A stretch of DNA of 59,805 bases, the filler included, from Sphacelaria rigidula (taxonomy: Eukaryota): assembly GCA_964200075.2 (NCBI GenBank). It is 9 parts of 9 records of this genome, joined end to end, with 100 filler letters (N's around TTAATTAATTAA, not from the genome) between each part and the next. Parts side by side here need not be neighbours in the genome. Positions count along the whole stretch, not along the records: positions 39,939 to 46,494 come from CAXNAA020019368.1; 8 more parts are not named here. One strand, 5' to 3'. Positions 8,300 through 46,594 of the stretch are shown here, in pieces. The notes under the pieces are model-generated. The model was given only the letters and a program-made list of their open reading frames with translations, was not told the DNA's origin and did no database searches. The translations under genes were made by a program, and so were the position numbers. Position 1 is the stretch's first letter. The number at the start of each line of letters is the position of its first letter.

Positions 8300-10030
8300 T
8301 TGCAGCAGCAGGCTGCCGCGCAGCAGCAGATTCTTCATCAGCAACAGCAGGTCCACCTTGCCCCCAGGCACCAGAACGTCCCGCCGTCTGTCCCTGCGCC
8401 TCCTCAGCAGGTCAGTGGGCCCCGCAAGCGCCGGCTGCCGGGAATTTCGCTATTTCCTAGCTGCCGCCTCCGCCGCCGTTGCCCCCGCAGCGCCGCTCTC
8501 GGTATACGGTTGCGCCCGACCCGGTCAGTCTCTACTGCAACCCATTCTATGGGTCGCTGAATCCGTCCGGTACAACCCTAGCTGCTCAATCCAGGTCGGA
8601 TGGATTGACACCGTACGGAGCCACGTACCCTCGCATTCCCGCACCTCCTGCCCAGCCGTTCGATCGGAATTGGTCTGCGATACTGAGACACCAGGAAGTG
8701 GTAGCACGCCAGACCTCAAACGTAGCCAAGCTCTTGATAGCTAAGGATGCGGACACTGTAGTGTATAAGGGACGGTCCGTAGACTGGACTGGAGATTTAA
8801 CTTGCCGTAATCCCGCGGTTTTGTTCGTAACCATTTTCGTACTGCATGAGCGGCGTATGAAGGGGTAAGTTGCAGGGTACCCACAGACCTTCGCTTGACT
8901 GCCAAGCCGCTGAAACCACAAGCGGACCGATACACGGGCGGGCGTAGGGATCTACTCATGCGTGTTGTGCTACCCACCTCAGCCACCTGTACCGAAATGA
9001 CGAATTGGAGAGGGGCTACTACCGAGGTGCCCGGCGTAGCAGGCGACATAATGCGAGTACCGTTTGGAGATGTCACCGCCCTGGAATGGCTCAGGAAGTT
9101 AGTAGCCAAGCAGACCAAGATGGGTATAGGCCATGCAGAAATAGCTCTTAAAATCGTAGAGCTACTAAAGAATGAGAGCGACGTAGGGGCCGCTCACCGC
9201 CCCGTACGGTTGGTCATGGTAGCCACGATTTCCCCGTCCTTCCCGCACCATGCTGAAGAGGAATAATTCTGGAGAGCGGCCTCGGAGACTCTAATCTTGC
9301 GGTTGTGCGGAAGCTTTCACCGACTGGTGATGCCCAACACGACAGCACAGTTGGTAGCAAACACGCTGCTTCAAATCCCCAACAAATCTTTGGAGGATGA
9401 CGCCCGTATGCTGCCAGTCAACTACGGCGATCCGATCAGCCCCACGATGAAGAGGAGAGGGCAAACCACTCATCGCATCTATAACGACTACGTGTCGGCC
9501 CTTCAGCGCCACTGCGAGCGGGCCAACACTACGGGCGACGTTATGAACCACGCAGCTGCAGCGTTGACGCGCTCTACTAAAGTCACGCAGGGCACCAATA
9601 TCCGCGGGGTTGGTGGCGACCAAGGAGCGACTGCTGCGTGAAAACGCGGAAGAACAAGCCATCGAAGATAAGTTTAACTCCGTCGCCGCTTTTATTAACC
9701 AGAAGACATCAACGCCACGCGGTGGCACACCGTTCGGAGCTTCCCCTCCCGCTAGGGATACGCAGAAGCGCTCACGGGAAGGGTCGGCCAAACCGACCAT
9801 GCGTGTCAAGTTTGATACGCAGGGCGACGCACCGACGACCGGTTTCATCCCCGCATGTAACGCACCCCAAGGGGGCGCGACGTCGCCGTACGATTGTTGG
9901 TTGTGTGCTTCAATCACGCATACGGGCGTGATTGTAGCCGCCGTGAAAATGGGAGTCGCAACTACTCCCACATCATCCCTCTCGGCAATTATAAGCAGCC
10001 CGACAAGCCCCAAGCCAGGGAAAAGCCGAA
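8300..10030 (+). pseudogene. gag: Gypsy gag remnant with Q/P-rich N-terminus and frameshifted CX2CX4HX4C zinc knuckle
   Basis: CWLCASITHT(G)RDC at 9895-9935, broken by a 1-nt deletion; homologous to the ORF at 44684-46494. Confidence 0.75.
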
Positions 10031-10289
10031 AACAAGGAGGGATAGGCTGATGAGCTTGCAGCTGGGGAACTTGTTCAGCTTGATCGACAATGAGCACAAC
10101 GATCGGGGGTTGTCCCACAGCCTGAACAGTCAGGAAATCTTGTGTGAAAAGGAAGGAGCCGAGATCGTTGACTCGCTCAGCAAGCGTTTCGACGCCGCGA
10201 ACGATGGACGAGGGTGCGCCCTGGGGCCGCGATCTCCGGAGGACCGCGTGTATACAAACTTTTTAGCCGGGGTGAGTAGTAAGGACGCA

Positions 10290-10680
10290 CAGCAGCTGTG
10301 GGTACAAGCTAGAGTTTGGCACCACAGTAGGAGTAGCCACGACTTACCAGTAACGGTGTTACTGGACACCGGGGCAGGGGGGGAGAATTATGCATCAGTA
10401 CAGTGGTGTAAGTCGTTGGTAACATCGGGTAAATTAGCAAGCAAGTTACAACGACAGGGAGCAGTGTTTTTGAGGGCTGCGAACCCTAATAACAGTAGGA
10501 CACCGCCGATGAAGATCCTAGGGTCAGCGGTAATTCCAATTCGTTTCCACCCAGAAGACAGAATAAGGGAGGTATGAGCTCGGGTGGTCGATGGGTTACC
10601 GTACGGATTCATTTTGGGAGCAAGTTTCTTCAGAAGAAACAAGAGCACGTTATCTTTTGATGGTCGATCGGGATTTCGGC
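10290..10680 (+). pseudogene. pol: Retroviral-type aspartic protease remnant
   Basis: VTVLLDTGAGGENY (DTG at 10365) and downstream VVDGLPYGFILGASFF; in-frame stop at 10575. Confidence 0.88.
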
Positions 10681-11539
10681 CTTCGCCGGAGGCACCATGG
10701 GTAAGGCTCGTGTCTAACGGTTCACCAAAAGTCGGAGCTGTTGACACCGGCCACCTCACCAGCCAAGGAGATTCGGCAGGGTGGGATCTATTCTGTGCGG
10801 TCAAGCCAAGCGCGCCCAGTGACGATCCGACGGGGATGTTGTATGGTGAGAGCGACCTGGCAGCATGGGACGAGGTATGGAAAAGCTTCGGAGCGGCGTG
10901 GGAGGACGATGCTACGCTTCAGTGGCCACTGCACCTGACGGAGGACGTGCGTTTAGAAGGTTTCGTTAGCGAGCTAGTCCTAGGCTACGTACGAGGGCCT
11001 CTACCGCAGGAGCGGCAACTCGTGTTGATCGAACCTTGGAAGGCGTTCGATTTAGATGAGGAGTCAGAGGTAGGGGTAGCCAGAGGAGTCCAGTGGTGGA
11101 GCCCACAGTTACCATTAGTATGTAAGGTGGGCAACATCGCCAAGAGTGCTCGCCTTGTGAGAAAGGGTATGGTAGTGGCAAAGGTCCTGGCCGTGAATGT
11201 TCGAGATCGCGAGCGAATGCAAAGTCTGTACGTTTCCGACTCCGGCACAACGCTTAAGTCGAAGGTGGAGGATAGAGGGACTGCGTCAGTCCCTTCCAAA
11301 CAGCTGCCGGAATCGGCGGAAGTGAAGGAGAGTGACACGACCGAGTCCATAGGAGTAAATCTCACGGAGGTAAACATGGGCCAGTTGGGTCCAAAGCAGA
11401 AGGTCCAGCTGCTATCTTTGTCGAGCGACTTTAACGAAGCAGGCCTTTTTGCGGTGGATCCTAAGCGAGTGAAGGCCGCCCGTGGAGAACCGTTACGTCT
11501 ACAGCTAAAACACTCCAGATGTCAAAAAAATTCTACCGG

Positions 11540-12040
11540 CACTAGGCGGTACTCGCCAGAACAGGAAAAGGCTATTCAAGACGAGATCAACAAGCTCGTG
11601 AAGCGGGGGATCATCGAGCCGTCGACGTCAGCACAGGCAGCTGCTTGCGTCACGATGCGGAAAAAAGACTGTAGTTTACGGTTGTGTCTAGATTATCGTG
11701 GACTGAACAAACTTCCCGAGTCATACACCGGCGGTTTGAGGGATATGCAGACCATGTATAGTGGGCTAGCAGAATATAAGTACTTCACGAGTGTTGATTT
11801 AGCGAGTGGGTTTTTTCCAGTTGGCGGTGGCACAAGAGGACCGACACCTAACAGCCTTTCGCGATGCGCAGGGTCACTCATGGCAATACCAACGTTGTGG
11901 ATTCGGACTCAAGGTATTGCCTACAACGTTTCACCGAACAGTGTCAGAAGCGTTGTTGCCGGCGAGGGATGTCAAGAACTGGTTGGATGGCATCTTGTGG
12001 CCTAGTGCGACATTCGCCAGTTACATGACGGGGTGGAGAG
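11540..12040 (+). pseudogene. pol: Gypsy reverse transcriptase remnant, 3' truncated
   Basis: GIIEPSTS...RLCLDYRGLN...SVDLASGF(fs)FQL...TAF...CGFGLK...WLDG (YxDD decayed); RT thumb and RNase H missing. Confidence 0.93.
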
Positions 12041-12112
12041 TCGTATCCACCGGAAACGGGGGACGCGGTTACCGTTGGCTTTGAGCATCCCATGCCGGGA
12101 CCGGTGGAGGAA

Positions 12113-12972
12113 CGACCCTCCGCTTTGATTGTCCATTGTGGAGGCGGAAGGAGTATTCTGGCTGCTGAGGAGTTCTTGGAGGTGGTAGCGGCCACTGATG
12201 CAGACTAGAAAGCGTTGGATTGTCTTCGAGAGAACAAAATCGGAAAGGGAGTCAGGCTGGTACGTACGAGTCCGGGGCGCAGTTCTCTCCACAACCTTGT
12301 GGAGGAGGTGCAACCAGAAGCTTTGGTAAGAAATACAAGTAGGATTGCCTCCATTGAGCGGGGTGCGGCGGAGTCGGAGTCCGCCGACGTTGCCAGAGAG
12401 TTGGTCGAGACATTCCTCTCCTCAACTTCGGTGACAACTCTGATATTGGAGAGTACTACTGTAATGGTGAACTCTCCTGGTTGGAAGGAGCGCGTTGCTC
12501 CGTTGTTGAGCGGAGCTGGTTGCCTCACCGAGCAGGCCCCGAATCGGAAGAGACGGACTATGTGGTCGCTTTGAAAGCTGATCGTCAGAGGGAAGGGCCA
12601 CTGCGAGTGTGGAAGCAGCGAGTGGAAGCGCACGCCATTGCCTGCCCCACGTTGAGTCAGCTATTGGGGCGGATTGGCACCCACTTTCTGTAGCCGACGG
12701 GACAAGGCAAGGCTATTCACGATTCCGAGGATCCGATGCCCACGTTATCTCGCCCCCGGCTGACGAAAGGAAAACCAAGGTGCGAGGAATTCAAACTCCA
12801 CTGGGCGAACGCAGGGAGATGGGAGGAAGAAGTCGAGCTGGAAAGAGTCGATCTCGTGAGAGTCGCGACCACCCTTGACCGTTACGAGACTCCACCCACG
12901 GTGAATAACGACGCCATGCCAGAGATTCTGGCTAGTTTCGTTCACCCGTGGATGATGATGGCGGTTCTATGA
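12113..12972 (+). pseudogene. C5 cytosine DNA methyltransferase-like domain inside Gypsy pol, lacking the catalytic PC
   Basis: Manual translation gives motif-like blocks I, II, VI, VIII, IX and X in canonical order (see findings); stops at 12206, 12691, 12970; frameshift ~12558. Confidence 0.62.
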
Positions 12973-39938: not shown

Positions 39939-40101
39939 TGAGTGATTTTAGAAATAAAAAAAAAAAAAAAAACAGCTGCTGTGTACGATTTTCGTGAAGG
40001 TAAGCTGCCTGGTATGAAAGAAAAATGTTTTTTTTTTTTTGTATTTTTCTACACTTTGTTTTTCGACTTTTTTTTCTGCTCGAACCGCAACATTTCAATT
40101 T

Positions 40102-41000
40102 CACGGCCCACAATCTGAAATCATGAAAAAGTATCCGGCTTGACCATTTTTTCGGAGTTCTTCGTGCGGTCGACGATTTCGGTGAAAAAGTCGTCCCGCC
40201 CGGAAGTCACGTTCCACCCGGAAAATCATGCATACGCCTCGCCCGGAAGTCGCGGCCCGCCCGGCAGATCCCGTACACGTCCCGCCCGGAAGTCACGTCC
40301 CTCCCGGAGGACCCCGTACACGCCCCGCTCGGGAGTAACGTCCCGCCCGGAGGTGACGTCACGCCCGTCAGACCCTGTACATGCCCCGCCCGAAAGTCAT
40401 GTCCCGCCCGGAAGACCTGGTACACGCCCCGCCCGGCAGTCACGTCCTGCCCGGTAGACCGCGTACACGTCCCGTCCGGAAGTCACGTCCCGCCCGGCAG
40501 ACCCCGTACACGTCCCGCCCGGAAGTCGCATCTCCCCCGGAGGACCCCGTACCGTTCATTCTCACGGCCCACAGTCTGAAATCATGAAAAAATATCCAGC
40601 TCGACTGTTTTCGGAGTTTTTCGTGCGGTCGACGACTTCGATGAAAAAGTTGTCCCGCCCGGAAGTCATGTCCCGCCCGAGGGACCCCGTACACGCCCCG
40701 CCCGGAAGCGACGTCCCGCCCAGGAGATCCTGCATACGCCCCGCCCAGAAGTCACGTCCCGCCCGTAGGGCCCCGCACACGCCCCGCCCGGAAGATCCTG
40801 CACACGCCCCGCCCAGAAGTTACCCGTCAGACCCCGTACATGCCCCGCCCAGAAGTTACCCGTCAGACCCCGTACATGCCCCGCCCGGAAGTCAGATCCC
40901 GCCCGGAAGTCACGTCTCACCCGGGAAATCCCGTATACACCCCGCCCGTAACTCATACCCCGCCCGTAAGATCCAGTACACGCTCCGACAAGAACTGACG
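40102..41000 (+). repeat. GC-rich ~40-bp minisatellite within two ~460-bp direct repeat units
   Basis: CGCCCGGAAGTCACGTCCCGCCCGG..GACCCCGTACA units; ~95-bp leader repeated at 40102 and 40563. Confidence 0.9.
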
Positions 41001-41469
41001 TCCCAACCGGATGTGCTGGACATCTTGGGTGAAAAAGAAAAAAGCGCTCGAGGCAGAGTTCGAACGCCGTACGTCCTTTTGCAAGCCAGGAGACATGGAG
41101 TGATACAGTGAAAGTGAGACGATAAAATGAAGTGATGGCATGAACGTTCTCTAGAAGGCCTACAACACGCCTGCACAATGTGCATCCTTCAATTCCCAAT
41201 GGCGGCGAGAGAACCTCCCGAAAAGCGGAACTTCGTATTATACGCACGGTACATGTAGGTGAAGTCAATGCTACTAACTGTAACAGATATGGCACACATC
41301 ATTCCCATCGTCCATCAATCCAGAAATAAACCATTTACAATATCGCCATCGAGGCCAATGGTAGCGATCTAGTCCGTCTTACCAGTAACCGCCTACAACT
41401 TTACGTCATATGTACACGTCCGTACGATACATCCCCCCGATCCTGCGTCGATCAATAAAATCTTCCACA

Positions 41470-42223
41470 CCCTGGACAATACAATATGTAATATACATTG
41501 CCCGCTCAATATATCGACGCGTCGGGCGGTCAATATATATTGGGCAAGCAATATGATGACACGAGAGAGGGTCAATATATATTGTGCCATCAATATATCA
41601 AGGCTCGCGACATGCAATATATATCGACCGAACAATATATCACGACACGCGCCACCTCAATATATATTGGCCGAGTAATATGTTGGTGCGAGAAGGCAAC
41701 AGTATATATTTGTCGTGTTATATATTTGCTGCCACCCGAGGTCAATATATATCGACGATTCAATATACTCGACACCTGAAGCGCCAATATATATCGCCGG
41801 CCCAATATGTCGTGCGTCAATGCGTCCAATATATGTTGGGCGGACAATACACGAGGAAACCGACGGTCACAATACATGTTGGTGTAGCAAAAGATATTAA
41901 TTTTCAACATAGATTGGAAAGTGTATTGGAATTAGTATCGTGCGCAGTTCTTTGTTCGCGGGCACCATTCAAAGACGTATGTTACATGCCGAAAATGCTC
42001 AATGTATTCCTCCGCAAGCGTGTTCGATATATGTTGGCTGCACAATAGCTATCCGATCAACGTGCGCAATATATATCGGAAAAACAACACTTCTGCATGG
42101 TTTGCGTTCAATATATATTATGGTAACAATATGCCACGCATCGCCTCGGCTCGATATATATTGACACTTCAATACATACACGGCCGGCATGCGCAATATA
42201 CATTGAATGTTTTATTCTCGGGG
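41470..42223. repeat. Phased 42-43 bp array of CAATATATATTG palindromes with variable spacers; possible TIR element
   Basis: Motif at 41489, 41531, 41573, 41615, 41658, 41700, 41743, 41785, 41827, 41870 and 42025, 42067, 42109, 42152, 42194. Confidence 0.85.
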
Positions 42224-43304
42224 CAACTGCATGTCTGTTCCGGATTTATCGGTTATGGTCCAGTCGAGTAGATTCCGTGTGTCGTACTCTTGCGTTGTCT
42301 AGCCCGACAGGTCATGGGCCATTCTGAGTTTGATTGATTTCGAGGGTGCCCCCTACTCGGGCACAGTCTTTTGAGAACTTATCTCAACGCGCGATTAGCA
42401 GCTACCAGCCGGTTGCCAATAGTACAAGAAGCATCAACACGATCACGGACTGCTATCTCAGAGGAGTCTTTGGTCTTCACAAATGTAAGCCCGCATTGCG
42501 CGCATCATATGGGTCTTGTCTACGGCGTAAACCATGGACAGGCGCCTGGTCATTAATGTGTGGGTTGACTCCCCACCTGGCAAATCGAGCTCAATAGCTT
42601 CGATACTAATGATTGTGTTTGAGCCTGCTAGCCTGGTGCCCACTGGACTGGCACCATTCCCACTTCGAGTATCGAACCATGACATGGTGTCCATCCGTGC
42701 TTGTGTAGAGTCAACTCCGGCATGACCCCCAAAGGAGTAACATGCGCCTCCGTAAACTTTTTTTGTGGGGAGGCTCGAGATTTCATTTTGTCGCGTCACT
42801 AGACTTATATATGGTAAATAGTGTGCCTTGCACAAATGGGAGAAAATCCACACAGCAACAGACGCCCTTCTTTCCACGAGTACGAAACAACACAACCGCG
42901 CTGCTTCACAGTTGCGTGCACTGATTGTTTTCAATAGCAAAAACAACTGCACCAGGATATGCTTGTACTGCAATTACGCGGAACAGTACAGAGTGAGCAT
43001 GGACTAGGTAGGCTTTGTCCTCCTGTCTGTTCGTGGTATTGCGTTGTTGCCCGCCGCATTGCACTGCGTTACATACAACTCAAGCAGAGCGCCACCAATG
43101 GCTTTATGCACGAGTTCATCAAGGATGGTGCATTAGCACGCCACGGCAGACGTTCAAAGCAAAAGTGAAATAACCTAGCCAAAACAATTGATAAACGGCA
43201 TAAAGGTCGAACGAGATTGCACGAGTCAACGAACCAGAGGGCCTACAATTACATCGGGGTGTTTTGGGACATCAAGTTCCAGACAGCTCCGGAAGCTGCA
43301 CAGC

Positions 43305-43765
43305 CGCGTTGTTGTTATCCGTTGTTGTGGCTGTTCGTTGTTTGTTTGCTGCGGTTCGTTGTTGTCCTTTTTGTTTGTTATTGTGCTGCTGCTACCATCT
43401 GTGGCTGTTTGTTGTTTGTTTGCTGCGGTTCGTTGTTGTCCTTTGTTTTTGTTATTGTGTTGCTGCTACCGTCTGTCGCTCTTGTTGTCGGCCGTTGTTG
43501 TTGTTGGTAGTGGTGGCGTTGCTTCTGCCTGTTATCGTTTGCTGTTGTTACGGCCGCTGCGGTCGCTGCTGCTTTGCTGTGTTGCTGTCGCTTTTGTGGC
43601 TACTATAAACTTTCATGTTGCAGTTGCTGCGGCTGTTTCCGCTGTGCTGTCAGTTACCCTGCTGTGTGGTTACTATTCCGCCTAAAGAACAATGCAATTT
43701 TGTTCTGCTGCTCGGCGGCTACTGTCCCGATTTTGTTTTGCTGCTCTGCGGTTACTGCCCCGCCT
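43305..43765 (+). repeat. (GTT/GCT)-rich low-complexity tract with an internal ~75-bp duplication
   Basis: Visible degenerate triplet repeats. Confidence 0.85.
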
Positions 43766-44589
43766 GAGGCTAGGCGTTGCGATGTTTGACTTTACCGCCC
43801 ATGGGTAGTTGTACCCTGTTGGCTATCGCACTGCCTGTTCAGCCCTCATGTGCGCGTAATGCCTCTTACACCGGCATGTAAAGTCACGAGTAGTTTCCCA
43901 CTCGCGTAGTTTCCCACTCTGCTGCTTGTACGGTGCCCCACTTTGACCGCATGAGCTTTTACCGATGAACGATTGTCATCACCATATGTGCCTAAATTGT
44001 TACACCGAGGTCCCCACGCATCTGTTCCCCTGAAATGCACCTCCTCGTGATGATGAGACGTTGTTCGCCGTTGTGGCCTACCCACACACTATAGTAGCTT
44101 TCCCTGCATCGCGTCACCATTATCCCTTTTGGTCGGGATCACACATGTCACTAATTGTGTGTACGGGTTGGCCGGGAATTTTGAAATTCGTTCTGAACCC
44201 GCTGCTGCCCGTACTGTTCATCACTGCGGTTGCTTTGATTGACGACAATCCTTTGATGACCAACCTTTGAGGACCGATCCTTCTCGACTGATCAGTTTCA
44301 AAAATGGAAAAGCATCATGAGTGAGTCCTTGCAAAAGATGATCAGTCCTTCAACGCTGACCACGCTAATTGTCATTGAAAACATTTACTAATCCACGTGA
44401 TGCCTCCGTTCTCCCCCCTTCTGTCCTGTCGGCGTCCTTTTCCCTTTCTCGGCCGTTGTTATCGGTTTCCGTTCCCTTGCCTCATACTGGTATGGGGCAA
44501 ACAAAAACTGTGTCGCTGCGCATCTCTGCTTTCTTCGATCACATCTCATTTTGACCATGGGAGTTGACGAAACACACGCGCCCCGCCGA

Positions 44590-44657
44590 TGTTTGATGCT
44601 GTACTGTTTGATGCTGTACTGTTTGATGCTGTACTGTTTGATGCTGTACTAGTTGAT
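44590..44657 (+). repeat. 15-bp tandem repeat (TGTTTGATGCTGTAC) x4.5
   Basis: Four exact copies just upstream of the gag-like ATG. Confidence 0.95.
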
Positions 44658-44683
44658 AAGTAAAGCAAAAAATAGAAAAAAAG

Positions 44684-46494
44684 ATGTCTGGCAGAGGCGC
44701 AGAAGGTGGTGACGGACGGGGAAGGAGGAACGGCAGACGCCGCTCAGACTTCAGGTTCTCCTCAGCACGCGGCAGTCGTTCCGATTCCCGGGACTCTCGC
44801 TCCCGCTCTCGCTTTCACCGCCGTGGTCGTAGCCGTTCCGATTCACGAGACTCCCGTGGCCCTCGCCGTAGCTCCCTCCGCCCCTCGCGCTCTCGTTCTA
44901 CCTTTCCTCGCCGCAACTTGTCCCGCGTGACTTACCGCTCCACGAGCCGTCCCAGAACGAACCGTGACAATCGGTCATCCAGGGACAGACACGAGACGGA
45001 GGGAAGCGTAAACAGGGAGGAAGGGGTGGAAGGGGCCGAAGCCAATCAACTGGCTAAGGTAAACAAACGGGTGCTGGATCGCATTGCGAACACCTCAAGG
45101 ATGCCAGTGTACACGGGCACTTTCCCAGGTAAGCTAACCATAGCGAACAGTGCAGTACTTCTTCAAGAAAAGATTTGGAGCACGTCGCGTCACGTGGAAC
45201 GTGCCGCGCTGAAGCTCCCCGAAGATGTACCGCTGGGTGGAGGAAGGTGGGGCACTAAAGTCGACAAGTACTCGCCCCGTCGCCGTGACTTACCCTTAGA
45301 CTTGCTTGCAAAGGGTAGCACTACTGCCACAGCCTTGCTATCGGGCACTGACGTTCGGGTGTACCTAATCTCAGGAGGATCGGAAATTGTCCGCCATGAG
45401 CAGGTAACGGCTGCCGATTGGTTGCGTCTGTTGGTGCGTGAAAAAGCTCTTAACAGTAACTCCGCCGAAAATGCACGAGAGGCGTTGAAGGAGATTACAC
45501 TGAAAAGCGGTGAATCTTGGGAGCATGTGGCTGAGCGAGTTTTGTTGGCTTATAAAGCCACCCTAGCTTGCGCAAGCCGTCCGCATGCCACTGAGACTGA
45601 CGTTTTCTGGACTCATCACGGAAGAGCAACTGAACGAACTATGTGAATGCATCGTCCGAGCCGTCTTGCCCGATGAAGCGCGCAGGGAGGGCATGCAATC
45701 AATGCTCCACGAGAAAATGAGCGTAGCAGACACCAAGCTCGCCGACATAGCAGAGGAGCTGCAAAACCCCCTGGGGGGACCTATGCGCTGCCGTGGTGAA
45801 GTGGCAAAAGGGTTGTACGAAGAGTTTATCAAAGTTCTCACTGCGCGCTCCTCGTCACATTACAGGAAGCCCGTCCAGAAAAAAACAAGTCGCACGGTAG
45901 GGCCAGATCGTCTTTTTTCCCTAGAGGATATTCAACAAATGTTCCCCGCGCAATTCGCTGCGCTCCGCGGTGGAAATGAAAGATTGATGCCCCGTCTTGC
46001 CGCAGACCCTGCGTCCGCTTCCAGAATCTTACCACAGATAGAGTACGCGCAACCACAACCGCAGTCGAGCAAGTGTGCTCAGCAGCAGACACTGGCCCTG
46101 GCGGCAGCATTCAACAACACACCAGGGGCCATCCCAGGACAGCACGGTGTACCTTTCGTGGAGCAGAAGCAACGGTCGGCCAGAGAAGTTCAGAATCAAG
46201 GTTGGGCAGCGGCCGCGAAAAAAGTGTCTTCGTCGCATGCTGCAACACCCCGGCCTTCAAGTTCATCCTCGGCTGGGAGCACCCGTGACGATCAAGCCGC
46301 CCTCTCCCCGACTGGCGACCGAGACGAGGTCATCGATTACCTCCGCACGAACAAGATCTGCTTCGGTCACGCTTTCACAGGTACCTGCCGCCGCCGTGAC
46401 GGCACTCCCTGTCCGTACACGCACGGCATTATCTCGCCTGCTCACTACAGGAACGTCCGGGCCCGCCGAAGAGCCGCTGTCCCCCGAAAGCGCC
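44684..46494 (+). pseudogene. gag: Retrotransposon gag-like ORF with RS-rich N-terminus and CCCH zinc finger; one frameshift at ~45610; truncated by the contig end
   Basis: Two overlapping long ORFs (44684-45646 and 45585-46494); homologous blocks to the gag at 8700-9520; C-x8-C-x7-C-x3-H at 46359-46424. Confidence 0.72.
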
Positions 46495-46594
46495 NNNNNN
46501 NNNNNNNNNNNNNNNNNNNNNNNNNNNNNNNNNNNNNNTTAATTAATTAANNNNNNNNNNNNNNNNNNNNNNNNNNNNNNNNNNNNNNNNNNNN
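46495..46594. other. Artificial contig linker
   Basis: Same 100-bp spacer. Confidence 0.98.

Follow-up and report, generated by a model that had tools for sequence, protein, structure and literature searches.

A regular palindrome array in the Sphacelaria rigidula genome belongs to a non-coding DNA transposon, likely a hAT element mobilized in trans

Introduction

What is a CRISPR-like array, with a conserved 12-bp palindrome every 42–43 bp and variable stretches in between, doing in the genome of a brown alga? Such an array was noticed at positions 41,470 to 42,223 of a 59,805-nucleotide stretch of Sphacelaria rigidula DNA (assembly GCA_964200075.2; nine parts of nine records joined end to end with filler), referred to here as the window. 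Filler recurs every 6656 bases, and the parts appear to be unrelated contigs of equal length (about 6557 bp), so that the wider surroundings of the array are uninformative. The genome searched (G000) contains a protein identical to one labelled Sphacelaria rigidula at NCBI, and sequencing runs indicate an algal source. The original prediction, made from the sequence alone, read it as a selected protein-binding array and offered as explanations the transposase sites of a non-autonomous element with terminal inverted repeats (TIRs), an iteron-like origin or a chromatin-positioning signal, with spacer acquisition as a less likely alternative. We find that the array is the left part of a dispersed, non-coding DNA transposon of ~1.65 kb with TIRs and an 8-bp target-site duplication (TSD). 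This is likely a non-autonomous brown-algal element of the hAT superfamily, mobilized in trans, with the units of the array as putative transposase sites.

Results

The predicted 10 + 5 units at 42–43 bp are borne out by the start positions of the palindromes. Those of the first array start at 41489, 41531, 41573, 41615, 41658, 41700, 41743, 41785, 41827 and 41870, and those of the second, as far as it is present in the window, at 42025, 42067, 42109, 42152 and 42194. Allowing up to two mismatches, CAATATATATTG has 19 matches in the window, 16 of them within 41489–42205, where 15 are in phase and one, at 41905, is off phase. The number expected in the whole window is 1.69 ± 1.37, and 19 matches were reached in none of 100 shuffles; likewise, the lag-42 autocorrelation of 4-mers amounts to 0.162 versus a shuffle maximum of 0.041. 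Comparing the 25 units of the family consensus (see below) with one another gives an identity of 0.94 for the palindrome, 0.72 for the half-site and 0.29 for both the 6-nt linker and the spacer (57% GC), in keeping with the claim that the motif is kept while the spacers of different units are unlike. The features of the locus are, all on the + strand:

41458..41465, +: left copy of the 8-bp target site, AAATCTTC, read from the sequence (family consensus RAATATTY)
41466..42235, +: left 772 bp of the ~1648-bp non-autonomous element, 95.5% identical to the family consensus
41466..41489, +: left TIR of 24 bp, CACACCCTGGACAATACAATATGT, matching the reverse complement of the consensus right end at 24 of 24 bases
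41489..41895, +: array 1; each of its 10 units comprises a 12-bp palindrome, 6 nt, a CAATAT half-site and a spacer, with a period of 42–43 bp
41896..42024, +: non-coding stretch between the arrays; from palindrome start to palindrome start 155 bp here and 157 bp in the consensus
42025..42235, +: array 2, first 5 of 8 units, from palindrome matches and alignment to the consensus
42236..42684, +: LTR of 449 bp, TG...CA, belonging to a retrotransposon that entered the element at consensus position 772 and is itself foreign to it
42685..42699, +: stretch beginning TGGTGTCC, directly 3' of the LTR, a putative primer-binding site

The period had also been said to set this array apart from the ordinary tandem repeats elsewhere in the window. 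This contrast fails for the GC-rich repeat at 40.1–41.0 kb, which likewise has a 43-bp period with an 18 + 25 sub-spacing. The repeat (40094–41010), in which CCCGCCCG sites follow one another at 18 and 25 bp, falls into two blocks that are 73% alike, so that its geometry is that of the CAATATATATTG array with another motif. A genome search with it returned the self-match only.

A search for copies, TIRs and TSDs had been proposed along with the original prediction, and all three were found. Queried with the window stretch, the genome gave at least 41 matches at 85–100% identity (40 scored of 542 candidates), and a 19-nt terminal motif has 227 exact matches in the genome, compared to 0 for a control motif. 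Most copies share a left boundary 4 bp outside the proposed start of the array; the inverted ends originally suggested therefore had to be revised, the true left end being the CACAC at 41466. The suggested right end at 42223 turned out to be an internal array unit, beyond which other copies continue. Alignment of 18 full copies (1552–1695 bp) yielded a 1648-bp consensus with a perfect TIR (24 of 24 bases, left end versus reverse complement of the right end) that begins CACACCCTGGAC. In the full element, 25 units are distributed over three arrays (10, 8 and 7) that run in the same direction and make up about two thirds of its length. Subterminal repeats lie at both ends, with 10 units behind the left TIR and, ahead of the right TIR, 7 units and a terminal palindrome. 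The consensus also holds a TA tract and, at position 945, a near-copy of the right end; the latter was considered as a true end and rejected, its right flank being identical in the copies examined. The longest ATG frame of the element measures 88 aa, and the frame of the window copy has no Pfam hit. MITEs are by convention miniature, under about 800 bp; the 1648-bp consensus exceeds this size, and we hence speak of a non-autonomous element rather than of a MITE in the strict sense.

The length of the duplication is sharply defined. Among 26 distinct end pairs, some of them from rearranged copies, the flanking 8 bp are identical in 10, agree at 7 or more positions in 17 and at 6 or more in 21. 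Mean identity at this length is 0.82, whereas lengths of 2–7 and 9–12 give at most 0.40 with at most 1 of 26 exact, and non-cognate end pairs give an 8-bp identity of 0.53 with 1.1% exact. The target sites follow the AT-rich consensus RAATATTY, with a central TA (T at position 4 and A at position 5) in 33 of 52 strand-symmetrised sites. A contig from sequencing run X3 displays an empty site, skipping 1647 bases that correspond to the element (1639) and one target copy (8); the flank is itself repeated, and the site may thus be paralogous. One copy (L050:1352-3199) is nested in the array of another copy, with the duplication TTCAATAT, and the resemblance of RAATATTY to the array motif suggests that the family may favor its own arrays. 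Pieces of the element were also seen in runs X10 and X11 from two other organisms, at ~90–95% identity to L005:1497-3135 and covering all 30 bins of that stretch (X10) or 23 of them (X11); they may stem from relatives, mixed samples or transfer.

An LTR retrotransposon has split the window copy, which is dead. Three units of array 2, the internal pseudo-end, the TA microsatellite, array 3 and the right TIR are missing from the contig that carries it. A search with the LTR gave 42 matches, many of them ending at query position 449–450, with a pair on C35 and another on C2597, each separated by about 6.7 kb; 7 other copies begin at the same TG in different flanks. The far LTR junction with the remainder of the window copy was searched for and not found. 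The retrotransposon, at 42236–46494, has a long leader behind its 449-bp LTR and frames at 44660–46550 with a C-C-H cluster, for which there was no Pfam hit. Elsewhere in the window, at 9291–12660, broken protease and reverse-transcriptase-like frames were recognized by eye as those of a Gypsy-type element.

A comparison of the copies allows the CRISPR framing to be judged. Its appeal lies in the look of one copy only, where a conserved repeat alternates with unlike spacers of fixed length. Across 49 aligned loci, the spacers are orthologous in place and thus inherited; these loci diverge from the consensus by a median of 5.2% (range 3.3–17.8%), a figure biased low by the choice of 29 of the 49 as best matches to the window. 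The mismatch to the consensus is lowest in palindromes (5.2%), followed by spacers (6.1%) and half-sites (6.4%), and reaches 7.2% in the rest of the element. A gain of spacers at one end had been suggested as a check, and inspection of 27 insertions of at least 15 bp revealed no new unit but TA expansions, foreign insertions and copies of the element's own sequence. The proposed comparison with viral sequence gave no match in 50,697 phage records, and none of 4227 Rfam families matched at E values up to 1, including any known CRISPR repeat family. As neighboring spacers are moreover related to each other in array 3, an array that acquires foreign spacers has, in our judgment, a negligible probability.

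How the arrays arose can be approached from the same copies. The variable parts of neighboring units are 0.49 identical in array 3, 0.33–0.39 in array 1 and 0.30–0.32 in array 2, compared to 0.32 in shuffles. The likeness present in array 3, faint in array 1 and absent in array 2 points to duplication followed by spacer drift. Of 29 deletions of at least 15 bp, 14 measure 42–44 or 84–86 bp, one of the 14 lying outside the arrays. Hence, the arrays grew by tandem duplication, after which the spacers drifted to chance identity, with units being lost whole.

A different possibility is that the arrays are kept for a host function, by positioning nucleosomes or chromatin proteins or by serving as a replication origin. 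AT-rich tracts phased at intervals of about four helical turns would suit such a role. The near-even decay of motif and spacer, the loss of units, the TA expansions and the interruption by other elements all speak against it, as do motifs that differ between families and are in some of them GC-rich. The origin and chromatin-signal readings of the original prediction thus found no support, and we regard a host function as very improbable.

We then consider the transposase by which the non-autonomous element could have been moved. Matches to the hAT dimerisation domain number at least 150 in the genome (150 scored of 248 candidates). Flanks were fetched for most of them, and a quick tree of 123 domains over 78 columns and a careful tree of 33 rows were built. 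Most hAT clades of the genome end in TAGGG or TAGAG; one clade, with support of 98/93 and 15 of the 33 rows, has ends of the form CA(C/T)(A/G)...GGAC where these were read. A 42–44-bp array inside the element's own ends was scored by hand, on the 123-domain tree, for 10 of 27 rows of this clade versus 2 of 96 others, a contrast that its Fisher value overstates, the rows being copies of a few families. Clear arrays within the clade have the motifs GAGCTA, GACTCG, ATGAAT and AACACA (5' side), and L104 displays a weak peak at 43; arrays are faint or lacking in the c7 family and in L110, L114 and L117.

Within the 98/93 clade, a protein search surfaced a group of loci, here termed family T (C4965, C12255, C1921 and C6133 of G000), with ends very similar to those of the element. 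Four copies in different flanks match the element TIR at 13, 15, 15 and 14 of 16 bases. Domain and 3' end occur together on about 14 contigs, with the 3' end 1.25–1.7 kb downstream of the hAT C-terminal domain. Scored on the unit profile of the element, family T ends contain 13–15 sites above zero versus 2.5–4.3 in shuffles, several of them spaced by 41–43 bp, and the units read C(A/G)ATATRYRTGG, 7 nt and CAATRG at 41–43 bp. On the 5' side of family T, matches at C4965:6227 and C9129:7437 suggest arrays that run in the same direction. The C-terminal frame of family T has no Pfam hit, and its hAT status derives from similarity to Pfam-positive loci. Family T and the element have no alignable interior DNA, and a tblastn search of the element against 6 hAT frames gave nothing under an E value of 0.26. 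As to the autonomous partner with the same termini that was to be looked for, near-identical termini (13–15 of 16) sit on family T; the exact partner, a hAT gene with CAATATATATTG arrays, was not found in the fetched flanks of hAT loci, which are mostly 3' sides in an assembly of 27,214 contigs.

The failure to find a direct hAT partner in the fetched loci would be compatible with the element being moved by another superfamily with 8-bp duplications and repeat-rich ends, such as KDZ/Zisupton, P/Galileo, Merlin or Mutator-Foldback, and the KDZ families described from Ectocarpus indeed combine 8-bp TSDs with tandem-repeat complex termini (PMC12477816). The Ectocarpus KDZ termini given there begin with GGG or CAGTA, not CACAC, and in the present genome near-identical termini sit on hAT genes. 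Genome searches with KDZ PF18758 and P-element PF21787 returned 0 matches, a weak result given that the controls were also silent. Altogether, we consider another superfamily improbable.

The hAT assignment has to accommodate the terminal bases. The usual terminal motif of hAT elements is (C/T)A(G/A)NG, which the CACAC termini of the element do not follow. CACAC is on record for Ectocarpus hAT-2, indicating that the usual motif is typical rather than defining.

The clade also contains the GAGCTA family. Its transposase matches PF05699 and Hermes (E 9.4e-8), three independent 3' ends read CACACGTCGGAC, and its GAGCTA arrays have periods of 42 and 85 bp with an 18 + 24 sub-spacing. An ~8-kb hAT at L122:1224-9255 (G000 C3058) has CACACGTCGGAC ends and GAGCTA arrays at both ends; its transposase is broken and probably spliced. 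This sole complete autonomous copy of the family has no matching TSD. A C/H-rich frame noticed in it by eye, a candidate BED domain, gave no match in Pfam, the Atlas or PDB. At L033:3318-4320 lies a ~1-kb non-coding derivative of an L122-type hAT with a 7/8 duplication.

Several candidates did not withstand closer inspection. The CACACCCTGGACAA ends in L104 and L106, and a similar end in L105, were considered as ends of hAT genes, and these genes end elsewhere. The arrays near hAT genes in L107, L124, L131, L153, L182, L184 and L215 lie beyond the shared ends of the genes and were taken to be unrelated insertions. Distant relatives of the clade from metagenomes carry these termini or arrays in none of 7 loci, no relatives of the clade were found in viral contigs, and the 15 hits of the 16-nt terminus pattern in viral contigs are due to chance, with the palindrome present in none of them.

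The period extends beyond the window family. A complete sister element of 1812 bp at L045:2485-4296 has CACAC ends and a perfect 8-bp TSD, TAACTTTC, on both sides. Its layout is that of the window family, with three arrays, the second followed by a pseudo-end, and a TA tract. Each of the arrays peaks at a lag of 43, the sub-spacing being 19 + 24. The two align over 25–28 bp at the ends only, and the interior is unalignable. Several families of one hAT clade have a 42–44-bp period with different motifs, and a sub-spacing of 18–19 + 24–25 is seen in three cases. Conservation of motif and period with changing spacers, as proposed for a check, is seen between families rather than between copies of one family, where the motifs are hardly better preserved than the spacers (5.2% versus 6.1% mismatch to the consensus). 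Arrays with a 41–43-bp period also occur in elements that could not be linked to a transposase.

Further arrays of 40–43 bp were seen in L131, L191, L153, L039, L184, L124, L166, L196 and L118, with motifs including TTGAGTA, TTCTGTA/ACCCGA, ATGAATCATG and ATCCGC and, in several, with CA(C/T)AC ends. Elements of ~130–140 bp in L120:6831-6964, L144 and L146 have CACACCCTGGAC-like ends on both sides and are candidates for a true MITE of the same transposase group.

Two explanations of this regularity have to be weighed, both of which leave the element and its sites as described. The period may merely be inherited from an ancestral minisatellite and have stayed in register by slippage or unequal exchange. 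The frequency of unit-sized deletions (14 of 29) and the residual likeness of neighbors in array 3 (0.49 versus 0.32 shuffled) agree with this, the GAGCTA and GACTCG arrays resemble ordinary tandem repeats, and all well-tied families come from one clade. Yet the period holds across families that cannot be aligned, and in array 2 the spacers are at chance identity while all 22 within-array spacings of the element are 42 or 43. The latter combination suggests that indels were not tolerated while substitutions became saturated. We regard an inherited period as a serious possibility, somewhat short of an even chance. The other explanation is geometric. The original prediction noted that 42 bp corresponds to four helical turns, placing the sites on one DNA face. 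This idea survives in so far as families that differ in motif share the period, with selection on the geometry itself as a conjecture.

Discussion

Of the explanations originally offered, the first, namely sites for the transposase of a non-autonomous TIR element, is the one that agrees with the TIR, the TSD, the dispersed copies and the related hAT families, the binding itself being predicted from the arrangement of the sites. Mobilization in trans would be due to a hAT transposase from the clade with CA(C/T)AC-NNN-GGAC ends, closest to family T. Each unit can be read as three C(A/G)ATA half-sites, namely a palindromic pair and a single site at +18, which would be recognized by the N-terminal BED-type DNA-binding domains of the transposase, as is the palindrome-plus-third-site in Hermes. 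This shared shape of the unit points to transposase binding sites, and we hold it probable that the units serve as such. Spacers, not being read by the transposase, would be free to drift.

More tentatively, the 42–43-bp period could be held by the geometry of a bound transposase oligomer, a role of the oligomer that we think less likely than not. Again tentatively, an asymmetry of the two ends may result from the arrays all pointing the same way. The Hermes octamer uses three BED domains, each from a different dimer, to contact a quasi-palindrome and a third site (PMC10368747). In the cryo-EM model described there, a 47-bp end spans the ring, and bp 47 occupies the place that TIR bp 3 has in the opposite dimer; 47 bp is also the length of the oligonucleotide, and the figure can be taken as a rough span only. 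According to the same source, Hermes needs asymmetric ends and about 200 bp of each end, for a reason left open there, as is the role of the DNA beyond the first 50 bp. By analogy, the 42–44-bp period of the clade might be a ruler, the footprint of one Hermes-like ring whose three DNA-binding domains sit on a palindrome and a single site, with several rings loaded in phase along the end and the motif co-evolving with the binding domain of each family at a constant spacing. We put this forward as a doubtful but specific suggestion.

Taken by itself, the element is ordinary and has many counterparts in the genome; the unusual part is the regularity across families. Our literature search, thin on subscription journals and Repbase Reports, found no published account of phased subterminal arrays in hAT elements. 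If the ruler is real, the families that share it would form a natural series for studying the dependence of hAT elements on hundreds of base pairs in addition to the TIR, and they offer a way to ask whether end length is read by phased loading of oligomers. The pairs of motif and binding domain would provide material for the study of specificity drift. They also supply a simple annotation rule for unclassified repeat-ended elements in brown algae.

Among known systems, CRISPR arrays share with the present arrays a partly palindromic conserved repeat, unlike spacers and a fixed period, but here the spacers are inherited rather than acquired and the array is flanked by TIRs and TSDs. A closer counterpart is Ectocarpus hAT-2_Ec32 (Repbase hAT-2_ESi), listed with CACAC-GTGTG termini, a 21-bp TIR and an assumed 8-bp TSD (PMC12477816 supplement 1). 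It is a hAT of a brown alga with a short TIR, 21 bp versus 24 bp here. In contrast to the present element, it is 8945 bp long and autonomous, its table row lists no subterminal arrays, and the likeness of the termini covers the 5 bases compared. Mar and further hAT MITEs whose target sites are of Buster type are, like the present element, non-coding, present in many copies and flanked by 8-bp TSDs with a central TA, the Buster-type consensus being given as nnnTAnnn (PMC3517528). The present element differs in being longer (1.65 kb) and composite, and its likeness to Buster concerns the target site.

The nearest functional parallel is with Hermes and Tol2, in which subterminal repeats are bound by BED domains; a transposase of the clade found here matches Hermes. 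Described subterminal repeats of hAT elements are short and scattered, and those of Hermes itself are scattered 4-bp sites, a palindrome-plus-third-site block occurring once, close to the left tip (PMC10368747). In the present element, a 12-bp palindrome and a half-site, putatively bound in the same manner, recur 25 times at a fixed period.
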